Source: Escherichia phage JMPW1
Strand: one strand, 5' to 3'
Sequence record: NC_041874.1
Length of the DNA: 49,628 bases
A program made the translations under genes and the position numbers. This document shows positions 2,627-49,257 of this stretch, piece after piece. The notes under the pieces were generated by a model. The model was not told the DNA's origin. It worked only from the letters and a program-made list of their open reading frames with translations, and did no database searches. How positions within the stretch are numbered: the stretch's first letter is position 1; each line of letters opens with the position of its first letter.

Positions 2627-2818
2627 ATGGCTGATTTTATGCACCAAATGATTGCAGTATTCAAAGGTAGTGATGACCAGGAGGTGAAAGAGTGCTTTAC
2701 TGTAGACAAGCCTTATAGCGCATCGCTAACCAGCTTCGGGAATATCTCATTGCTTGATGATAACGGCGACCCCTGGGTATTCGACGAAGACACTGATTGC
2801 TTCGAAATTAAAGAATAG
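2627..2818 (+). CDS. small highly acidic protein (63 aa)
   Basis: ORF rich in D/E; stop TAG shared with next box. Confidence 0.5.
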   Translation: MADFMHQMIAVFKGSDDQEVKECFTVDKPYSASLTSFGNISLLDDNGDPWVFDEDTDCFEIKE

Positions 2819-4101: not shown

Positions 4102-4151
4102 ATAGCACGAATTGCTAAACCTTCCGCAAGGCCATTTGATATAGTGGCCTT
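4102..4151 (+). promoter_or_regulatory. Early promoter cassette: box + IR AAGGCCA/TGGCCTT enclosing extended -10 TGATATAGT
   Basis: Box 4102-4120; IR 4128-4151; -10 4140-4145 preceded by TG. Confidence 0.6.
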
Positions 4152-5446: not shown

Positions 5447-5665
5447 ATGGCTACTATCATAACAGCAGAAGATGCAGCACGCGACGCAGTGGAAGGAATG
5501 CGCCCAAATACCTCCAGAATAGCACACTACTACAAATCTGAGGTGTCGGCAGTGCAATTGGTCAACGAAATTTTAAGGCTACCACAAGTCGATTCAGCGC
5601 GCGTGGTGACGTGCTTAAAAAATTATTTTTGCATCGCTATTAAAACGAATAGCACGAATTGCTAA
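5447..5665 (+). CDS. hypothetical protein (72 aa)
   Basis: ORF; stop TAA lies inside next box. Confidence 0.3.
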   Translation: MATIITAEDAARDAVEGMRPNTSRIAHYYKSEVSAVQLVNEILRLPQVDSARVVTCLKNYFCIAIKTNSTNC

Positions 5666-5722: not shown

Positions 5723-6169
5723 ATGAAACACTTAATTTGCATTGAAACGCCTAACGACCAGTACACCCTGCACGGCATTGGAATGTTCAAAGGTCACTAC
5801 ATGACAGCAAGTATTCATGATTCGCGTTGCGTCAATGGCGATCTGATGATTACGTCAAAAGAAGTAACTCCGTACATTATGCAGAATCTTGGCAATAACG
5901 AATATATGGCCTACGGATGCAATGCGGTGTACAAGCATATCAAGATCAGAAAACGCGTTGTTCGCGCATTCAAGAAAATTGCAATGAAACAATGGAAGAT
6001 GAGCAAGAAAGATGCTGGACGCTGGGCGCGTAACGTTGCAGATTCATACTTCTACCGTAACGGTGAGTCCTGCCACTTCCTTATCGATGAACTTATGGAA
6101 AACTACGGCGGCGACTTCAGTCAGGGTGGCTTTGACGCTTGGGCTGACTACGAGGTCGATTACTGGTAA
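5723..6169 (+). CDS. hypothetical protein (148 aa)
   Basis: Start placed at ATG 5723 after RBS GAGGAAG; upstream ATG 5681 lies in promoter hairpin. Confidence 0.5.
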   Translation: MKHLICIETPNDQYTLHGIGMFKGHYMTASIHDSRCVNGDLMITSKEVTPYIMQNLGNNEYMAYGCNAVYKHIKIRKRVVRAFKKIAMKQWKMSKKDAGRWARNVADSYFYRNGESCHFLIDELMENYGGDFSQGGFDAWADYEVDYW

Positions 6170-6218
6170 TAGCACGAATTGCTAAAACTTGCTCAAGGGC
6201 ATTTGATAGAATGCCCTT
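6169..6218 (+). promoter_or_regulatory. Early promoter cassette: box + IR AAGGGCA/TGCCCTT enclosing extended -10 TGATAGAAT
   Basis: Box 6169-6188; IR 6195-6218; -10 6207-6212; CCAATCAGAGGA RBS follows. Confidence 0.6.
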
Positions 6219-6972: not shown

Positions 6973-7545
6973 ATGAAAACAGCTATCATTTTAAACGGTG
7001 CGCCTGGCGCGGGAAAAGACACTATAGGGTGCATCCTGGCTGACACTTACGATCATGTAGCGCTACGCAGCTTTAAAGCTCCAATGTTTGAGATTGCCCG
7101 AGCAATCCTGGGTGAGACTAATTTTGAGTATTTCATGTTCTTGTATGAGGACCGTCGCTATAAAGAAGAGCCAGCATCAATCCTGAACGGTAAAAGCCCG
7201 CGCCAGTTTATGATCTGGATTAGCGAGGAGGTTATCAAGCCGCAGTTCGGAAATCGCTTCTTCGGTATGCGAGCGGAAAGCAAGGTGAAAGAGTCTCACT
7301 CCCTTTCGGTATTTACTGACGGTGGATTCAAAGACGAAATCTTGCAGATGATTGAAGGTGAAATCCAGGTCAAGCTATGTCGAATCCATCGCAACGGTTG
7401 CAACTTTGACAACGACAGTCGCGACTACATCTATCTTGACGATATGATCGGGGTCAACGGTTATCAGGAATGTGACTTCTTCTCTGTCGAAGGTCATCCA
7501 GAAATTACCGCTCAGCACATAGCCGCCACGTTCATCAACAAATAG
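6973..7545 (+). CDS. P-loop kinase, deoxynucleoside monophosphate kinase-like
   Basis: Walker A GAPGAGKDT and LNGKSP motif resembling phage T4 gp1 dNMP kinase (from memory). Confidence 0.55.
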   Translation: MKTAIILNGAPGAGKDTIGCILADTYDHVALRSFKAPMFEIARAILGETNFEYFMFLYEDRRYKEEPASILNGKSPRQFMIWISEEVIKPQFGNRFFGMRAESKVKESHSLSVFTDGGFKDEILQMIEGEIQVKLCRIHRNGCNFDNDSRDYIYLDDMIGVNGYQECDFFSVEGHPEITAQHIAATFINK

Positions 7546-7589
7546 CACGAATTGCTAAAACGTCGGTGGGGTGACTTGATATAGTTACC
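7542..7589 (+). promoter_or_regulatory. Early promoter cassette: box + imperfect IR enclosing extended -10 TGATATAGT
   Basis: Box 7542-7561; IR about 7568-7589; -10 7580-7585. Confidence 0.55.
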
Positions 7590-23784: not shown

Positions 23785-23873
23785 CACCTCATGACAAAAG
23801 CCCGCCTTGCGCGGGTGGCGCTCAGGTTTACAGATTTCACGGAGAGAATATCCAGTACACTCCAGAAGAAATA

Positions 23874-24479
23874 ATGCAGGCCCAGCAAACCGGAACACTA
23901 CCGCCGAAAGAAATTACATTCCGTGGTGAGCAATACGGAGCGCGCCCGTTCGGTATATCCGGGATCTCGTTTGATAGTTCCGGCAAGGCAACAAAACCAC
24001 AATTAACAGTGGCAAATATTGATAGCAGAGTGTCGGCAATGATTCGCGCATATAACGGATTGATGCAGGCGAAGGTGACAATCTGGATCACTCAAAAGGA
24101 CTTAATTCAACCTGACGGCTCAATCGCTGATGGAGCTTACCGTAAACTGGTATACTATATCGAACGCCCGAGCTATGTCGATAAGAGTGTTGCGTGGTTC
24201 GATCTCACATCACCGTATGATATGGATGGCATCATGATCCCATCTCGACTCACACAAAGCGTATGCTATTGGGCGCAGCGTGGATGGTATAAAACCGGGA
24301 AGGGCTGCGGATATAACGGGCAAAACGGTTACTTTGATAAAGACAATAACCCGGTAGATGATCCTTCACTGGACTTTTGCCCAGGAACGGTAACGGCCTG
24401 CCGCCTGCGATTCGGCGCAAACAATGAATTGGATTTTGGCGGTTGCGCTGTCGCTTCACTACAGAGGAAAAATCAATGA
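23874..24479 (+). CDS. minor tail protein L-like
   Basis: Gene order M-L-K-I-J; RGEQYGARPFGISG and LTVANI resemble lambda gpL; start uncertain. Confidence 0.6.
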   Translation: MQAQQTGTLPPKEITFRGEQYGARPFGISGISFDSSGKATKPQLTVANIDSRVSAMIRAYNGLMQAKVTIWITQKDLIQPDGSIADGAYRKLVYYIERPSYVDKSVAWFDLTSPYDMDGIMIPSRLTQSVCYWAQRGWYKTGKGCGYNGQNGYFDKDNNPVDDPSLDFCPGTVTACRLRFGANNELDFGGCAVASLQRKNQ

Positions 24480-32948: not shown

Positions 32949-33365
32949 ATGCATATTATCACTGGCGAGATCCGCAAAGAACCTAAGATTCTTGAACGTA
33001 ACGGCGGCAATACTTATATCATCGAACTGGCAGAAAGCTATAAGCCTCGCGATGGCGATCGTGAATACACCAACTACACATTCTTTTTTAGCGATGGTGG
33101 AAAGCCTGGCCTTGCTGACTGGTATCGTGAAGCGTTCCAGGTTGGTCGCGTAGTATCAGTGTCGTGCGAAACTCTGAAAATCTCATCCCGTGAGCACAAC
33201 GGAACTGTTTACAATTCATTGCAGGCCGCTGATTTTCCTAAGCTGGTATTCAGTCAGCGAGGACAAAGCAATCAACAACAGCGATCGCCTCAGCAACAAC
33301 AGCGAACTCAACAACAACCACAACCGAACCATCAGTCAACATTTGACGATGATATCCCATTCTAA
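32949..33365 (+). CDS. ssb: single-stranded DNA-binding protein
   Basis: Gln/Pro-rich linker and acidic C-terminal tail DDDIPF. Confidence 0.8.
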   Translation: MHIITGEIRKEPKILERNGGNTYIIELAESYKPRDGDREYTNYTFFFSDGGKPGLADWYREAFQVGRVVSVSCETLKISSREHNGTVYNSLQAADFPKLVFSQRGQSNQQQRSPQQQQRTQQQPQPNHQSTFDDDIPF

Positions 33366-43919: not shown

Positions 43920-44327
43920 TCAAATTCTTCTTTCGTAAGCTGGAGCCTTGCGCACAATTCGACGTTCCGATCTATCAATGTTTCTACGTTCTCCAAACAA
44001 ATCCTCATCACTCATCTCTCCAATGTGCATCATTTCCCACGTATACCGATTGTTGTAGCCATCAATACACATCAGCTTCATCATTACCGGGCGCTTAATC
44101 TTTCCCTTGCACCAGTAAAACCCATCCCTGCAATCAAGATAACCCTCAGTTACACAGCGTGAGCAAAACTCCTTAGATAGCGCGCTTGTAAATTCACGGC
44201 GAGTCATTCCTGCGGCCTTAGCAAATCGCTCACTTTCCTTGTGGGCGTATATAAATTTCGCTATGTGCTGTCGAGTGTATTTGTCGTAACCTTCGCAGAA
44301 CCTGAACAGATCTAAAAGAAGAAGCAT
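43920..44327 (-). CDS. Cys-rich hypothetical protein (135 aa), possibly zinc-binding
   Basis: Multiple Cys (CEGY, CSRC, C..C); last gene of minus-strand operon. Confidence 0.45.
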   Translation of the reverse strand: MLLLLDLFRFCEGYDKYTRQHIAKFIYAHKESERFAKAAGMTRREFTSALSKEFCSRCVTEGYLDCRDGFYWCKGKIKRPVMMKLMCIDGYNNRYTWEMMHIGEMSDEDLFGERRNIDRSERRIVRKAPAYERRI

Positions 44328-44331
44328 ATTA

Positions 44332-45900
44332 TTAACCCATCAGTCGAGGGTTGATGAAAACAATATCATCAATCCGGCAAGTGTAGTTCATCTCTTCGAG
44401 CGTGATCAGCAGGCTGTCGATTCGCTCAGATACTTTCTGTTGACCGTTGAACGGCGTAACGTTCCGGCACTTTGCAACGATGCTATGAATAGGTGCGCGG
44501 CCTTTGTTCTTCTTCGCGATCTCAGTGATAACATCAATCAGCTTACGAGATTCAGCCTCATCACCTGCATACCCGGCAGCGCTGGCAGATGACAGGTAAG
44601 TCCTGGAAAGCTCATTGAAGATCATGATCGCTTCCTGCATTGTTTCAAGGTCAATCTCACGATTAGATCGGTTCGGTGATTCACCCTCCCAATTCTTGAT
44701 CGTGTGAAGAACTGAAGCAATGCGCAAAGCGTGCTTATCGAACTTACCGAGATGACCGCGTAGCATTGAGTGAGAGTATTTGCCCCCGGCGGCGAAATCA
44801 GGCTCCATCGCCTGGCGAGCAAGGTTTAATTCACGCATAGCGTTACGGCTTACAGAGAGAACGACGTTGTCCTCCTTCATAATGTTGTGCACGAGTCTGT
44901 AATATTTGCTAACCAGTCCGCGATCTACTTCCTTATACAGCGCATCACCATTTTCATCGCAAAGAATACGAGTACCTAAAAGCGGTTCCTCTCGAACCAG
45001 GAGGAAACGCTCAGATACACCGATACCGCGCTGGCCTGCGTCCATGATACCCTTGATTGTTTCATCCTGCGCAATGACGCAGATCGAACCGACCGGGCAA
45101 AGAGATAAGTTGTTGTCCTGATTTGAACGCGCGACCTCCATATGGTTTTTATCCCACGCCTTAAGAATAAGCTCGCTGTTTGATTTCTTATCAGAACCGC
45201 CATAAGTCAGACCAAGCAATGTATTGATTGCCGTTGCTTCATCAGATATTACGGAAAAGTGGCCTTGAACAGCCGCAACTTTCGCAAGACCTTCAGGTGT
45301 AGGATCTGATACCGCGAAAACAATATCAGCCATCTTCTTGATCTTTTCTTCCAGTTTTTCCTTGTCTTCGTACAGAGCCGCCGTCGTGTTACCCTTTGGA
45401 TCGTTTTTTATTTCTTTCTCGACCTGACGTAGCTGACTGGTTAAACGTATGCGCTCCTTTTTGCGCTCTTCATTCAGTCGCTGAATCTCCGCACGCATAG
45501 GTGTAATCGCCGCTGAGTTAATAGCGGACTTACCTGTTGATGGTGGCTGGCTGATTACCATGTAAAGCGCGGTCGGCTGTTCTTCGCCGTGATATTGCAC
45601 CCAAAACTTCCCGAGCATAGCGGCTGAGATGCACCCAATGAAATGAGCGTACGCAGACGAAACAGGGAACTGTACAGACTCAGCCTTTGCCTTTGCATAT
45701 TCGAATACCAGGTTATCGCCACCTAACGAAATCAGCGGGAACTTATCGTTTCCACTGTTGATATCGATCGGATCTTGCCAAAACGAAACTGAATCCCCAT
45801 AGCTGTTTTCACGAATTGCGATCGACACCGGATTAACTCCAGTGCTATTTGCGATCTCAATAATCTGTTGGTAATTCAATTTTGGCTTAATATTAAACAT
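44332..45900 (-). CDS. large hypothetical protein with Walker A-like PPSTGKS motif (about 522 aa)
   Basis: Start moved to ATG 45900 (RBS AAGGAG); ORF-track start 45963 lies inside the box. Confidence 0.5.
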   Translation of the reverse strand: MFNIKPKLNYQQIIEIANSTGVNPVSIAIRENSYGDSVSFWQDPIDINSGNDKFPLISLGGDNLVFEYAKAKAESVQFPVSSAYAHFIGCISAAMLGKFWVQYHGEEQPTALYMVISQPPSTGKSAINSAAITPMRAEIQRLNEERKKERIRLTSQLRQVEKEIKNDPKGNTTAALYEDKEKLEEKIKKMADIVFAVSDPTPEGLAKVAAVQGHFSVISDEATAINTLLGLTYGGSDKKSNSELILKAWDKNHMEVARSNQDNNLSLCPVGSICVIAQDETIKGIMDAGQRGIGVSERFLLVREEPLLGTRILCDENGDALYKEVDRGLVSKYYRLVHNIMKEDNVVLSVSRNAMRELNLARQAMEPDFAAGGKYSHSMLRGHLGKFDKHALRIASVLHTIKNWEGESPNRSNREIDLETMQEAIMIFNELSRTYLSSASAAGYAGDEAESRKLIDVITEIAKKNKGRAPIHSIVAKCRNVTPFNGQQKVSERIDSLLITLEEMNYTCRIDDIVFINPRLMG

Positions 45901-45920
45901 CACAATAAACTCCTTAGTTG

Positions 45921-45974
45921 ACGGTGTGAATGATACACCGCCAATGGTACACGCGTTTTGCAAAAAGTGCTATT
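45921..45974 (-). promoter_or_regulatory. Promoter cassette, minus strand: box + IR CGGTGT/ACACCG
   Basis: Minus-strand box ATAGCACTTTTTGCAAAA (plus 45957-45974); hairpin plus 45921-45945. Confidence 0.5.
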
Positions 45975-45976
45975 GG

Positions 45977-46393
45977 TTATAAGTATTTGGCCTCAAAGGT
46001 TGTGCCATCTGCGATACTAAAACCGATCTCTTCGCGAAATAATGTCCAACGGCATCCGTCCTCATCAAAGATGTAACCAGCTACGCCGCCGAGAGCGCGA
46101 CCGCTTTCTACCTGGTAACGCTTTCCAACTTTGAATGATTTTTTCATCGGGTTGCGATGGTCAAGTCCGGTGCACTTTAGCGTCTTTGTTTTCAACTCGG
46201 TGAATTTCGCGAAGAAGATTTCATCAGTTCCGTGAATCTGTAATTCATCATGCTTTTCAAGTTTTAAATACTTCCCGCATTTTAGTTTTACTTCGCGAGT
46301 ACCATCATAGCGCTCACGACCTTTATACAAATTGTTTACTTCGAATCCTGTGATCTTGTCTGCGGAAGTGCATTTCAGTTTGATGGATTTCAT
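45977..46393 (-). CDS. paralog-family protein, two tandem small domains (138 aa)
   Basis: Repeats containing KCT...F.VG.RY and DEDGC; RBS CCAATCAGGAG. Confidence 0.5.
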   Translation of the reverse strand: MKSIKLKCTSADKITGFEVNNLYKGRERYDGTREVKLKCGKYLKLEKHDELQIHGTDEIFFAKFTELKTKTLKCTGLDHRNPMKKSFKVGKRYQVESGRALGGVAGYIFDEDGCRWTLFREEIGFSIADGTTFEAKYL

Positions 46394-46409: not shown

Positions 46410-46473
46410 TGGTTATCTTGAATAAGGCCACTTTATCAAATGACCTTACGGCAATATTAACAAATCGTGCTAT
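46410..46473 (-). promoter_or_regulatory. Promoter cassette, minus strand: box + IR
   Basis: Minus-strand ATAGCACGATTTGTTAA (plus 46455-46473); IR AAGGTCA/TGGCCTT. Confidence 0.5.
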
Positions 46474-46686
46474 TTACCAGGGAATATAATTGTCGTCGTC
46501 CTCATCAATATCATCACCAGGTAACTCGAAGTCTGGATTATATTCGCTTTCTGCGTCCATATCCATATTCCCTAGAGCGTCATCAAGCGTAATTTCTTTA
46601 TACGCAACCTTTATACACCATTCCGCACTAAGCCCAGCATCAAGAGCGGCAAAATAACGAGTCCAGAAATTATCCTGCTCCATCAA
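46474..46686 (-). CDS. small acidic protein with SSB-tail-like C-terminus (70 aa)
   Basis: C-terminus DIDEDDDNYIPW resembles SSB acidic tip (DDDIPF). Confidence 0.45.
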   Translation of the reverse strand: MMEQDNFWTRYFAALDAGLSAEWCIKVAYKEITLDDALGNMDMDAESEYNPDFELPGDDIDEDDDNYIPW

Positions 46687-46911
46687 TCAACCCCATGAAT
46701 TAATGTAAATTGAGTTAGCCTCAAGCGTAGCGCGCACATCCGCATCTGTTGCATTTACTAAGCGCGAGCCTGGCGTGCTGCCGATAACGTTATTACCGTT
46801 ACGAGCCTTAGTTACCGTCATTGAAATAAAACCGGAAGACTTATCCATTTTGATAACTACACGGCCTTTAGCGTTCAGGTGCGTGATGATATTCTCAACT
46901 TTAATGCTCAT
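46687..46911 (-). CDS. hypothetical protein (74 aa)
   Basis: ORF downstream of minus-strand box. Confidence 0.45.
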   Translation of the reverse strand: MSIKVENIITHLNAKGRVVIKMDKSSGFISMTVTKARNGNNVIGSTPGSRLVNATDADVRATLEANSIYINSWG

Positions 46912-46972: not shown

Positions 46973-46990
46973 TTAGCAATTCGTGCTATC
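46973..46990 (-). promoter_or_regulatory. Box, minus orientation
   Basis: Plus-strand TTTAGCAATTCGTGCTAT is reverse complement of ATAGCACGAATTGCTAAA. Confidence 0.5.
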
Positions 46991-47128
46991 AGTACTCAGA
47001 AATTACTTTGCACTCTTTGATTGTTCCACCCAAAACTACTTTCTGCATCATTGCTTTTTGTTGGCTATCGTAAACGCGAACATTTTTTACTCTGTTAAAT
47101 TTGCCAGTATAGAAGGTGTGAATATAAA

Positions 47129-47452
47129 TCATTTTTTACCGTCCCACGTTTGATATGCCGTAACCAGGTTAATGCTGTGGTCGAACTCGTCAACGCTAAG
47201 CGATCCGATTCTAACAAGCTCTTTGTCGTGCTTAATATCAATCATCCGGCTATATGGATGGCCTGGCACATACTTGAACAGTCGTTTGCTGTCGGCAATG
47301 TCTGCGTTGATTCCGTAGAATCGGCCTACCGCCGCCTTAACGCGCTCCATGATGTTTTTTTCGTGGATTGCCGCCGCGTTATTTAGTGCCGCAACCGTGC
47401 TTCCGTTAATCTTCGGTGACTTCGTTGTGATTTTGTAAGTGTGGTTCATCAT
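47129..47452 (-). CDS. hypothetical protein (107 aa)
   Basis: Start trimmed to ATG 47452 after RBS AGGGGGA. Confidence 0.45.
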   Translation of the reverse strand: MMNHTYKITTKSPKINGSTVAALNNAAAIHEKNIMERVKAAVGRFYGINADIADSKRLFKYVPGHPYSRMIDIKHDKELVRIGSLSVDEFDHSINLVTAYQTWDGKK

Positions 47453-47465
47453 TCCCCCTAACCAG

Positions 47466-47666
47466 TCAGGATAGCTTTCGCGCTTCATCAATGATAACAG
47501 GCTCAAGGCGTTCAAGTCGAACGCGGAACGAGTTCATAAATCCTTCGTTGTTCTTCAGTAGTTCGAATGCGTCTGTAGCTTCAATGGCGCTATTCCCCAT
47601 GTAGGCAATTACTTTTTTCTGAGTCTTACGTGAGATCGCCACTACGCGGTAAATATTATCACTCAT
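47466..47666 (-). CDS. hypothetical protein (66 aa)
   Basis: Start trimmed to ATG downstream of upstream gene stop. Confidence 0.4.
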   Translation of the reverse strand: MSDNIYRVVAISRKTQKKVIAYMGNSAIEATDAFELLKNNEGFMNSFRVRLERLEPVIIDEARKLS

Positions 47667-48509: not shown

Positions 48510-48570
48510 TCGTTTCGATGAGGTAATTATGCCAAATCGCACCGATCGAGTTTTAACAAAAAGTGCTATT
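48510..48570 (-). promoter_or_regulatory. Promoter cassette, minus strand
   Basis: Plus-strand TTAACAAAAAGTGCTAT 48554-48570; minus-strand -10-like CATAAT downstream. Confidence 0.45.
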
Positions 48571-49257
48571 TGCGATCGCTTTGAAAAATCCACGAGGAGA
48601 TAAGGAACGTATCAGCTTCGTTTTGGCAGACTTGCCGCCCAGCTTGTTTTGCTGTGCAGAGTACCCGTCATGCAGGTTTACAGGCTTCCTTTCTGGCATG
48701 ACAAAGTCGTCCGAAGTCCAAAGACAAGTTTTCTTCGGGTAAGCATCGCGCGGCGCAATATACATCGGGAACCAGGGGTGTGCGTCATTCTCAGGAAGAT
48801 AGCCGCCATACTCCCAGGGATTGAAAGTGTGGTCAGCCTTTCGCCAGGCTGATGACAGGACGCTAACCGGATTCTCAATGATGTAAGTCACACCCAGGCT
48901 ATCACCGATGTTCGCGGCAATCCGGGCGGTGGCAACAGCTTTCTCCTGGAATAGCGGATCACGTTTACGCTTGCTGGCAAAGTGTCGAGCACCACTAACG
49001 GCCAGGTCAGTGCACGGCGGGAAGGCCATAATGAAATCCGGCTTGCCATACACACCCGCGATCGCATCACGTTCGAACGTTTCATCAATGAACACGTTCA
49101 CATACTCAATGTTGGGATGCTCTACCCGGGCATTGTACTTTGCATAATCTCCGTGATCGGCTCCGTCAAAGTTGAAGCACATCACTTTATGACCTTGCTT
49201 TGCCAGTTCATGACCAGCCAGGCCCGAGCCGTCGAATAGTGACCAGATTAATTTCAT
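48553..49257 (-). CDS. compact DNA (cytosine-5)-methyltransferase-like protein (234 aa)
   Basis: Motif I-like LFDGSGLAG, PC motif FPPCTD, ENV-like IIENPV in canonical order; short for a C5-MTase. Confidence 0.5.
   Translation of the reverse strand: MKLIWSLFDGSGLAGHELAKQGHKVMCFNFDGADHGDYAKYNARVEHPNIEYVNVFIDETFERDAIAGVYGKPDFIMAFPPCTDLAVSGARHFASKRKRDPLFQEKAVATARIAANIGDSLGVTYIIENPVSVLSSAWRKADHTFNPWEYGGYLPENDAHPWFPMYIAPRDAYPKKTCLWTSDDFVMPERKPVNLHDGYSAQQNKLGGKSAKTKLIRSLSPRGFFKAIANSTFC

Follow-up and report, generated by a model that had tools for sequence, protein, structure and literature searches.

The tip of SSB is a central docking signal of bacterial genome maintenance and is read by more than 12 enzymes. 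The side chain of its terminal Phe and the free carboxylate enter a hydrophobic, basic-rimmed pocket of the partner protein, and in E. coli these partners include chi (Pol III clamp loader), PriA, DnaG, ExoI, RecQ, RecG, RecO and RNase HI. Acidic tails with an aromatic end can also occupy the DNA clefts of OB folds in cis, as they do in E. coli SSB, T7 gp2.5 and T4 gp32. In phage T7, the SSB (gp2.5) and the helicase-primase (gp4) both carry acidic tails ending in Phe, and both dock on the T7 DNA polymerase. The gp2.5 tail is described in 10.64898/2026.02.22.705581. A further example is the phage SSB-like protein Bas52_0087, which has two predicted OB folds and ends in FDDDIPF. It is needed to trigger the DRT10 defence (bioRxiv 10.64898/2026.04.29.721553), and an interface with ExoI and other host partners of SSB has been proposed for it.

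Here we analyze a gene of Escherichia phage JMPW1 (NC_041874.1) encoding a small acidic protein, Gp69, that carries an SSB-like tip; the complete stretch of 49,628 nucleotides is referred to below as the window. Like E. coli SSB (...MDFDDDIPF), Gp69 combines a folded domain, a predicted disordered linker, an acidic stretch and a Phi-Pro-aromatic core at its extreme C-terminus. Unlike SSB, it has no OB fold, its folded part being a 38-residue domain predicted to be helical, and in its tip the terminal Phe is exchanged for Trp and an extra Tyr stands ahead of the Ile. Most relatives of Gp69 differ from SSB by a Cys4 knuckle where SSB has its Asp run, and some relatives carry an additional residue after the Phe. 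The locus resembles T7 in that an aromatic-ended acidic tail is found on more than one protein, here SSB and Gp69 and, in phage AugustePiccard, also a dNMP-kinase-like enzyme. However, Gp69 is a dedicated small protein rather than an enzyme, shares no sequence similarity with gp2.5 or gp4, and comes from a phage whose large ORFs, as scanned, yielded no polymerase, whereas in T7 the polymerase is the reader; here that part would fall to a protein of the host or to another one of the phage. Gp69 has in common with Bas52_0087 that both are phage proteins with an SSB-type tip, but it lacks OB folds and is unrelated in sequence. The literature that we searched contains no description of the Gp69 family, of any other non-SSB phage protein built on an SSB-type tip, or of a mimic of the SSB C-terminus (SSB-Ct). 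What appears to be new here is a known type of docking motif on a new scaffold, together with a Cys4-knuckle form of it.

The window is from a T1-like phage: over 1.7 kb around the gene, it is 100% identical to Escherichia phage phi2013 (Drexlerviridae, Tunavirus), and its identity to many T1-like Escherichia and Shigella phages is 92-94%. The gene lies on the minus strand at 46474..46683, stop codon included, where it is present in the list of open reading frames and corresponds to a 210-nt CDS of phi2013 annotated as hypothetical protein Gp69 (MT427400.3). Its product matches phrog_9085 over its full length (E 5.8e-46) and phrog_9323 over residues 1-47 (E 8.2e-24), both of them uncharacterised families. 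Across seven T1-clade copies, dN/dS is 0.05 overall, 0.02 for residues 1-38 and 0.22 for residues 39-65, and the codons of the terminal YIPW show synonymous changes only. The ORF is a real gene under purifying selection. A longer version of it (46474..46686, minus strand) opens with a TTG at 46686 that is followed directly by the ATG at 46683. The ATG is the likelier start, given a GGGG Shine-Dalgarno sequence 7 nt upstream of it, the 210-nt GenBank CDS and the MEQDNFW sequence with which nearly all homologues begin. A preliminary description of this locus had reported a 70-aa protein with a strongly acidic C-terminal half; the gene and its acidity are borne out, and the length becomes 69 residues when counted from the ATG.

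The protein (MEQDNFWTRYFAALDAGLSAEWCIKVAYKEITLDDALGNMDMDAESEYNPDFELPGDDIDEDDDNYIPW) has a pI of 4.05 and a net charge of -17, with 20 Asp or Glu residues against three Lys or Arg. Its last 31 residues (39-69) contain 13 Asp or Glu and no Lys or Arg, and it terminates in DDDNYIPW (DIDEDDDN-Y-IPW), with a TAA stop directly after W69. AlphaFold2, run on the family alignment, predicts three short helices (residues 6-15, 20-27 and 33-38; block-mean pLDDT 74-85) in the N-terminal domain, which comprises residues 1-38 and is encoded at 46570..46683 on the minus strand. The domain is the most conserved part of the family and the most strongly constrained part of the protein, marked both by its low dN/dS and by invariant residues, with G17, V26, A36, L37 and G38 retained across the distant homologues. 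Past residue 38 no secondary structure is predicted and the block-mean pLDDT falls to 53-57. This predicted disordered tail begins with an acidic motif (residues 38-52; 46528..46572, minus strand) of the form G-[DN]-M-D-M-D-x-E-S followed by E-[YF]-[DN]-P-[DN]-F, identified through its conservation in the family. Within it, ALGDMDMDxES is the best-conserved stretch of the family, and SE[YF][DN]P[DN]F is kept in the T1 clade and present in some distant homologues. A variable acidic linker follows (residues 53-65, ELPGDDIDEDDDN; 46489..46527, minus strand), which differs among close homologues and is replaced in most other clusters of the family by a C-x-C-x5-C-x2-C knuckle. The C-terminal tip, Y-I-P-W followed by the stop codon (46477..46488, minus strand), is a putative docking motif resembling the SSB tip and is singled out by its conservation and by the synonymous-only changes in its codons.

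On the predicted model, the layout of Gp69 is therefore that of a folded domain, a flexible acidic linker and a tip, the same as SSB without its OB fold. Gp69 itself was considered as an SSB and rejected, since its predicted fold is three short helices, with no OB fold in the model, and searches of Pfam, NCBIfam and PHROGs returned no SSB match. More generally, searches of Pfam, NCBIfam and PDB sequences with single members and profiles of the family yielded nothing significant, and when the model was compared with PDB structures by Foldseek, no match was better than E 5.7, the domain being too small to place.

Relatives of Gp69 were collected by searching 1.84 billion representative proteins exhaustively with a profile, which found 30, and further relatives with the same pattern came from IMG/VR loci and a second database search. 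Nearly all short relatives share an N-terminal region of about 48 residues (consensus FWxRxxAAxDAGLNxEWAxKVAYxExTLDxALGDMDMDxES), followed by a variable segment and an IPF, IPW, LPF or FPF end. Within the T1 clade (59-99% identity), I67, P68 and W69 do not vary and Y66 hardly does, while the acidic run before them differs in sequence and length; distant homologues, at 35-60% identity, end in IPF, LPF, FPF or IPW. The tip is present in 114 of 116 unique short family members, the two others being a frameshifted fusion and a protein with a different end. Counted over unique sequences, IPW occurs 64 times, IPF 23, FPF 16 and LPF 3. When the family is clustered at 60% identity, a tip of the form [IFLVE]P[FW], PF[WL] or ISF is kept in 22 of 23 clusters; the terminal residue is Phe or Trp in 19 of the 23, and three have Trp or Leu added after the Phe. 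The forms follow lineage and include YIPW, CIPF, CFPF (as R-C-FPF), IPFW, VPFL and VPFW. As a background, all the DNA retrieved contains 7,769 stop-to-stop segments that are 40 aa or longer; 48 of them end in [ILVFM]P[FW], and only about five of these 48 are neither an SSB nor a member of the Gp69 family. Judged against this sequence background, the Gp69 tip is beyond chance. One alternative-frame ORF of the window (23795..23929) also ends in NYIPW, and was set aside as a chance match overlapping the start of a tail gene.

The segment that carries the tip comes in two designs. In the T1 clade and a few other clusters it is free of Cys, strongly acidic and ends in IPW or LPF, and in most clusters the four-Cys knuckle C-x-C-x5-C-x2-C directly precedes IPF or FPF. 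Relatives with the knuckle usually retain one Asp or Glu two positions before the tip ([DE]-C-IPF), with Arg at this position in the FPF group. Some family sequences join linker motifs of the T1 type with the Cys4 knuckle. All representatives of the family are acidic, with net charges from -4 to -19. The persistence of the tip through a complete change of linker is the strongest sign that it is the working part of the tail.

The core of the Gp69 tip is I-P-W, as compared with I-P-F or L-P-F in the SSB-type ends DDDIPF and DDDLPF. As in those ends, the aromatic residue is terminal and carries the free carboxylate, acidic residues precede the core, and the segment leading to it is a linker that AlphaFold2 predicts to be disordered. 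We know of no test of Trp in place of the terminal Phe in any SSB-tip pocket. The preliminary description had likened this end to the tip of the phage's own SSB. The likeness has gained much support: IPF itself ends distant homologues, nothing else in the tail persists as well as the tip, and an acidic disordered segment is predicted before it. The other member of that comparison is likewise upheld: the protein encoded at 32949..33365 on the plus strand matches the SSB family phrog_44 (and, weakly, TIGR00621) and ends in STFDDDIPF, the codons for DDDIPF lying at 33345-33362. In four further Drexlerviridae, belonging to three genera, the SSB terminates in DFDDDIPF, and all tips of the phage SSBs examined read DFDDDIPF, DDDIPF or NDDIPF. 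A second small acidic protein that had been pointed out at 2627..2818 does exist as an ORF of 63 aa, but it belongs to the unrelated phrog_11551, a family of unknown function, and has no such tip. Taken together, a Phi-Pro-aromatic end on an acidic flexible tail is most simply explained, by analogy, as a docking signal of the SSB-tip type. Other C-terminal signals were compared with the Gp69 end and rejected. Neither the beta-clamp motif QL[SD]LF nor the ClpX and Lon degrons match it; the C-terminal peptide DIPAFL of FtsZ lies internally, and one more residue separates its Pro from its Phe; and the C-terminal Phe/Trp signal of OMPs is ruled out for an acidic, cytoplasmic protein with no signal peptide.

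The family is present in at least 447 phage records, as detected by tblastn with one distant member as query, and the hosts named in these records are Escherichia, Klebsiella, Shigella, Salmonella, Citrobacter, Enterobacter and Cronobacter. Among the records listed, the ORF is labelled hypothetical or is mis-assigned to the neighbouring methylase gene. No member was found in GTDB genomes (one per bacterial species) or in plasmids, so the family appears to be confined to virulent phages. It was also considered as a universal core gene of Drexlerviridae, which was rejected because Rogunavirus Jk06 has no detectable member and Braunvirinae have only a remote one. In AugustePiccard (Braunvirinae), no copy is detectable by HMM, and the syntenic position is taken by a 57-aa protein of the uncharacterised phrog_9053 that ends in CCDGLGCEECLPW, keeping the knuckle and carrying an LPW tip; in profile comparison, which is the basis of this relationship, it aligns with the family profile at an hhalign probability of 83.7% (E 8e-6). 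In Ackermannviridae, proteins of 166-206 aa carry the central domain of Gp69 without the tip, and the neighbours of these long homologues have nothing in common with the Drexlerviridae context. Copies of the gene are disrupted in two records (vB_SsoS_008 and vB_EcoS-DELF2), which would make it dispensable in laboratory culture if the disruptions are real; the HIDEN-SEQ essentiality preprint does not cover Drexlerviridae.

The gene is the second of a two-gene unit. A 74-aa gene (phrog_4344; 46687..46911, minus strand) ends 3 nt before the ATG of gp69, the junction reading TGA TTG ATG, and is its neighbour in most related phages. Its product is modelled by AlphaFold2 as an alpha-beta4-alpha fold (mean pLDDT 70), for which a fold search returned non-significant matches only, to dsRBD- and YfiA-like folds. 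The unit is bracketed by ATAGCACGAWTTG elements: a perfect copy of a repeated intergenic motif, ATAGCACGAATTG, lies upstream of it at 46977..46989 and a second perfect copy, ATAGCACGATTTG, lies directly after the stop codon of gp69 at 46461..46473, both on the minus strand. The motif has 22 matches in the window, against 3.1 expected, and all of them run along the local direction of transcription. Downstream of gp69, and also on the minus strand, follow a conserved syntenic gene of 138 aa (phrog_2684; 45977..46393) and a DUF3987 helicase (phrog_2373 'DNA helicase'; 44332..45963, with an annotated start at 45900; Pfam DUF3987 E 3.4e-42). The order gp69, methylase, 138-aa gene and DUF3987 helicase is kept in 11 distant Drexlerviridae loci; the helicase lies downstream of gp69 in all related phages examined, and the 74-aa gene was detected upstream in seven of these 11. 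In the window, the methylase is found further upstream (48553..49257) and not between gp69 and the 138-aa gene. Among the products of the window are Erf, a PDDEXK exonuclease, SSB, a primase, two helicases, VRR-NUC and Dam. Its large ORFs that were scanned yielded no DNA polymerase, and the phage appears to depend on that of the host.

The reading that we favour, tentatively and as one that may well prove wrong, is that Gp69 is a two-module protein in which the N-terminal domain binds a partner of its own and the tip docks in SSB-tip pockets, tying the two together. The first module (residues 1-38), a tightly conserved domain with three predicted helices, would bind a specific partner, for which the replication proteins encoded beside it, the DUF3987 helicase and the products of the 74-aa and 138-aa neighbours, are the best candidates. 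That this domain must bind something by itself is suggested by its dN/dS of 0.02 and by its occurrence without the tip in Ackermannviridae. The second module (residues 39-69) is an acidic tail, predicted to be disordered, whose last residues, Y-I-P-W in this phage and C-I-P-F or C-F-P-F in the majority of relatives, would form a short docking motif of the SSB-Ct type. By docking in one or a few SSB-tip pockets, the tip would tie the partner of the N-terminal domain to that particular reader. The most likely purpose would be to link the phage helicase and primase machinery to host replication proteins, as no phage DNA polymerase was found. We infer each element of this proposal, namely the binding of the tip to SSB-tip pockets, the identity of its reader and of the N-domain partner, and a role as adaptor or as decoy, from the comparisons presented above.

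Several features speak against this reading. The form of the tip is specific to each lineage, though the phages infect enterobacteria and their SSB tips stay near-canonical. In the three clusters with a residue after the Phe (IPFW and VPFL, for instance), the carboxylate read by canonical pockets would be shifted, and the FPF group has Arg, not Asp or Glu, two positions before the tip. The synteny with the helicase may reflect only a shared cluster of early or replication genes. The drift among lineages, the extra residues and the Arg are compatible with one reader of greater tolerance, or with a phage-encoded reader. A Gp69 with one reader can drift whereas an SSB with many cannot, which would account for lineage-specific tips beside nearly fixed SSB tips.

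The same evidence on tip and tail is open to a second explanation, which we regard as possible though on the unlikely side: Gp69 would be a decoy or competitive inhibitor that, produced early and in abundance, fills host SSB-tip pockets and uncouples the host SSB from chosen partners. Competition for SSB-interacting host proteins had been raised in the preliminary description. Rather unlikely in the same degree are the specific targets that may be envisaged, either ExoI, RecJ and RecQ, which could attack the ends of phage DNA as well as recombination intermediates, or PriA and chi, whose capture would shut down host replication. We would likewise give only a modest chance to the corresponding role of the N-terminal domain, which might provide extra contacts for specificity or oligomerise for avidity. 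A small, very acidic protein encoded in a co-oriented cluster of small genes of unknown function does resemble a typical host-takeover product. The DRT10 defence is under the control of ExoI (SbcB) dosage and of a phage SSB-like protein that ends in FDDDIPF (10.64898/2026.04.29.721553), and several defence systems respond to phage SSB (10.64898/2026.02.22.705581), so that interfering with the readers of the SSB tip would have plausible selective value. However, the tip of the phage's own SSB is canonical, and a general decoy would therefore compete with it as well. A single monomeric tip, moreover, would compete weakly with tetrameric SSB assembled on ssDNA, SSB-Ct affinities being micromolar, and a second, specific partner is indicated by the very strong constraint on the N-terminal domain and by the tip-less forms of this domain in Ackermannviridae. 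These last two features, together with the synteny with the helicase, the apparent dependence on the host polymerase and the tip shared with the phage SSB, make an adaptor role more likely than a decoy. In addition, the dNMP-kinase-like enzyme of AugustePiccard, whose homologues elsewhere have no such tip, ends in DDIPW, which fits the addressing of an enzyme to a site better than inhibition.

It is also conceivable, if doubtful, that the tip is read not by host pockets but by a co-evolving partner encoded by the phage, in which case its likeness to the SSB tip would be convergent or partial. The readers that come into question, with equally low probability, are the DUF3987 helicase, the primase, Erf, the exonuclease and the product of the 74-aa neighbour. 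Such co-evolution would agree with a tip that varies by lineage while the SSB tips examined are almost invariant, with the extra residues after Phe in three clusters, and with the location of gp69, which is separated by 3 nt from a conserved 74-aa gene and shares synteny with the helicase. On the other hand, a Phi-P-[F/W] end behind an acidic disordered tail is the exact format of SSB-Ct. A phage protein that reads the tip of the phage SSB would still be an SSB-tip reader, and to that extent this explanation merges with that of an adaptor.

The preliminary description had also entertained a DNA mimic active against restriction, and mimicry of DNA aimed at restriction or other DNA-targeting defences, in the manner of Ocr, ArdA and Arn, would have an acidic surface imitate the DNA backbone and block nucleases. 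Gp69 shares with T7 Ocr, ArdA and T4 Arn a small size and a very negative net charge (-17, and -4 to -19 across the family), but those proteins are fully folded and display rigid arrays of carboxylates. In Gp69, only about 38 residues are predicted to be folded; the acidic part is predicted to be disordered and varies among homologues, leaving no folded scaffold with a regular carboxylate array, and in most clusters the acidic run gives way to the Cys4 knuckle while the tip is kept. No likeness to a known mimic, in sequence or in fold, was found with Pfam, a PDB sequence profile or Foldseek against the PDB, and plasmids and bacterial genomes, in which anti-restriction genes are common, yielded no member of the family. 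The restriction phenotype that has been published for the phage family is a further argument against this role, and we consider the idea poorly supported and highly improbable. A regulator of SSB, with the acidic aromatic-ended tail of Gp69 bound in the OB-fold ssDNA cleft of the phage or host SSB and tuning its binding of ssDNA, has the precedent of the cleft-occupying tails and the strong acidity of the T1-clade tail in its favour, but is very improbable too, because most tails of the family are Cys4 knuckles of only moderate charge, the conserved feature is the Phi-P-aromatic tip and not the charge, and gp69 lies about 13 kb from ssb with no genomic linkage to it.

The adaptor reading may be extended to the phages as a group, although we hold this broader proposal to be improbable. 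The SSB tip would serve in them as a general address label, carried by SSB, by a Gp69 adaptor and by occasional enzymes such as a dNMP kinase, and through it the DUF3987 helicase and primase machinery would be linked to a host reader, for example chi. If this were true, it would constitute a previously undescribed viral way to capture the host replisome, and the Cys4 knuckle with its IPF end would add a new structural form to the SSB-tip motif.

The Gp69 family is relevant to the defence systems, known in growing number, by which SSB and its partners are monitored. If its tip docks in SSB-tip pockets, the family would offer highly diverse natural variants of the motif (IPW, FPF and Cys4-knuckle-IPF) with which the specificity of these pockets could be mapped. 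It would also suggest an answer, open to testing, to the question of how T1-like phages with no apparent polymerase of their own connect their helicase and primase to the host replisome or, alternatively, of how they disarm host nucleases.

The acidic Gp69 protein of JMPW1 has relatives of markedly different length. In Escherichia phage AugustePiccard (MZ501051.1), the 57-aa product of bas01_0062 (phrog_9053; 44190-44363, minus strand), which ends in CCDGLGCEECLPW, is a remote homologue whose kinship with the Gp69 family is detected by profile-profile comparison alone, and its gene occupies the position syntenic with that of Gp69, upstream of the DUF3987 helicase gene. Longer homologues of 166-206 aa (phrog_4823, found in 246 phage records) are encoded in the ~157-kb genomes of Ackermannviridae (loci L041-L046, 5680-6300, plus strand; also L040). 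These proteins share with the Gp69 family a central DAGL...ALGDMDMDxE domain, flanked on one side by an N-terminal beta-rich region and on the other by a conserved acidic stretch and a C-terminal helix (…GGEDDNTPPLEILMAGG.AAWEWQNEKNAWLDSRL); they lack the IPF tip. Broken copies of the Gp69-family gene were identified in two deposited genomes, those of Shigella phage vB_SsoS_008 (P0063) and Escherichia phage vB_EcoS-DELF2 (L021, 5977-6063; P0105). In one case the upstream 74-aa gene is joined to the copy, which is cut off ahead of the tail; in the other the copy is split into two pieces of 28 and 51 aa. They represent either sequencing errors or an indication that loss of the gene can occur in culture.

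In JMPW1 this 74-aa neighbour (phrog_4344) maps to 46687-46911 on the minus strand, and it was detected beside the Gp69 gene in most, not all, related phages. Its predicted fold comprises a helix, four strands and a helix, for which fold comparison returned no significant match, and all its close homologues end in YINSW[SG]. An intergenic motif, ATAGCAC(G/T)(A/T)(A/T)TTG, is repeated in the window, with 22 matches against 3.1 expected when up to two mismatches are allowed (e.g. 1794-1806, 4102-4114, 5649-5661, 6169-6181 and 7542-7554 on the plus strand; 46461-46473 and 46977-46989 on the minus strand). Most copies lie at gene boundaries, all 22 follow the local direction of transcription, and two sub-types can be distinguished (...CACGAATTG and ...CACTTTTTG). 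The motif is likely to be an element associated with promoters or terminators in T1-like phages.

A 44-codon segment at 23795-23929 (plus strand) ends in ERNYIPW, its final five residues being identical to those of Gp69; it lies in an alternative frame, overlaps the start of a tail gene (23874-24479) and is best regarded as a chance occurrence. The second small acidic protein pointed out in the preliminary description is indeed encoded at 2627-2818 (plus strand; 63 aa, phrog_11551), is unrelated to Gp69 and terminates in ...DCFEIKE, with no SSB-like end. An SSB-like tip, DYEWVDDIPW, forms the C-terminal end of AugustePiccard bas01_0069, a dNMP-kinase-like P-loop protein (phrog_139; 47002-47616, plus strand). 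This tail is missing from its homologues at 10 further loci of Drexlerviridae where the C-terminus can be read, among them 6973-7545 in the window, and the tip looks to have been acquired independently by an enzyme.
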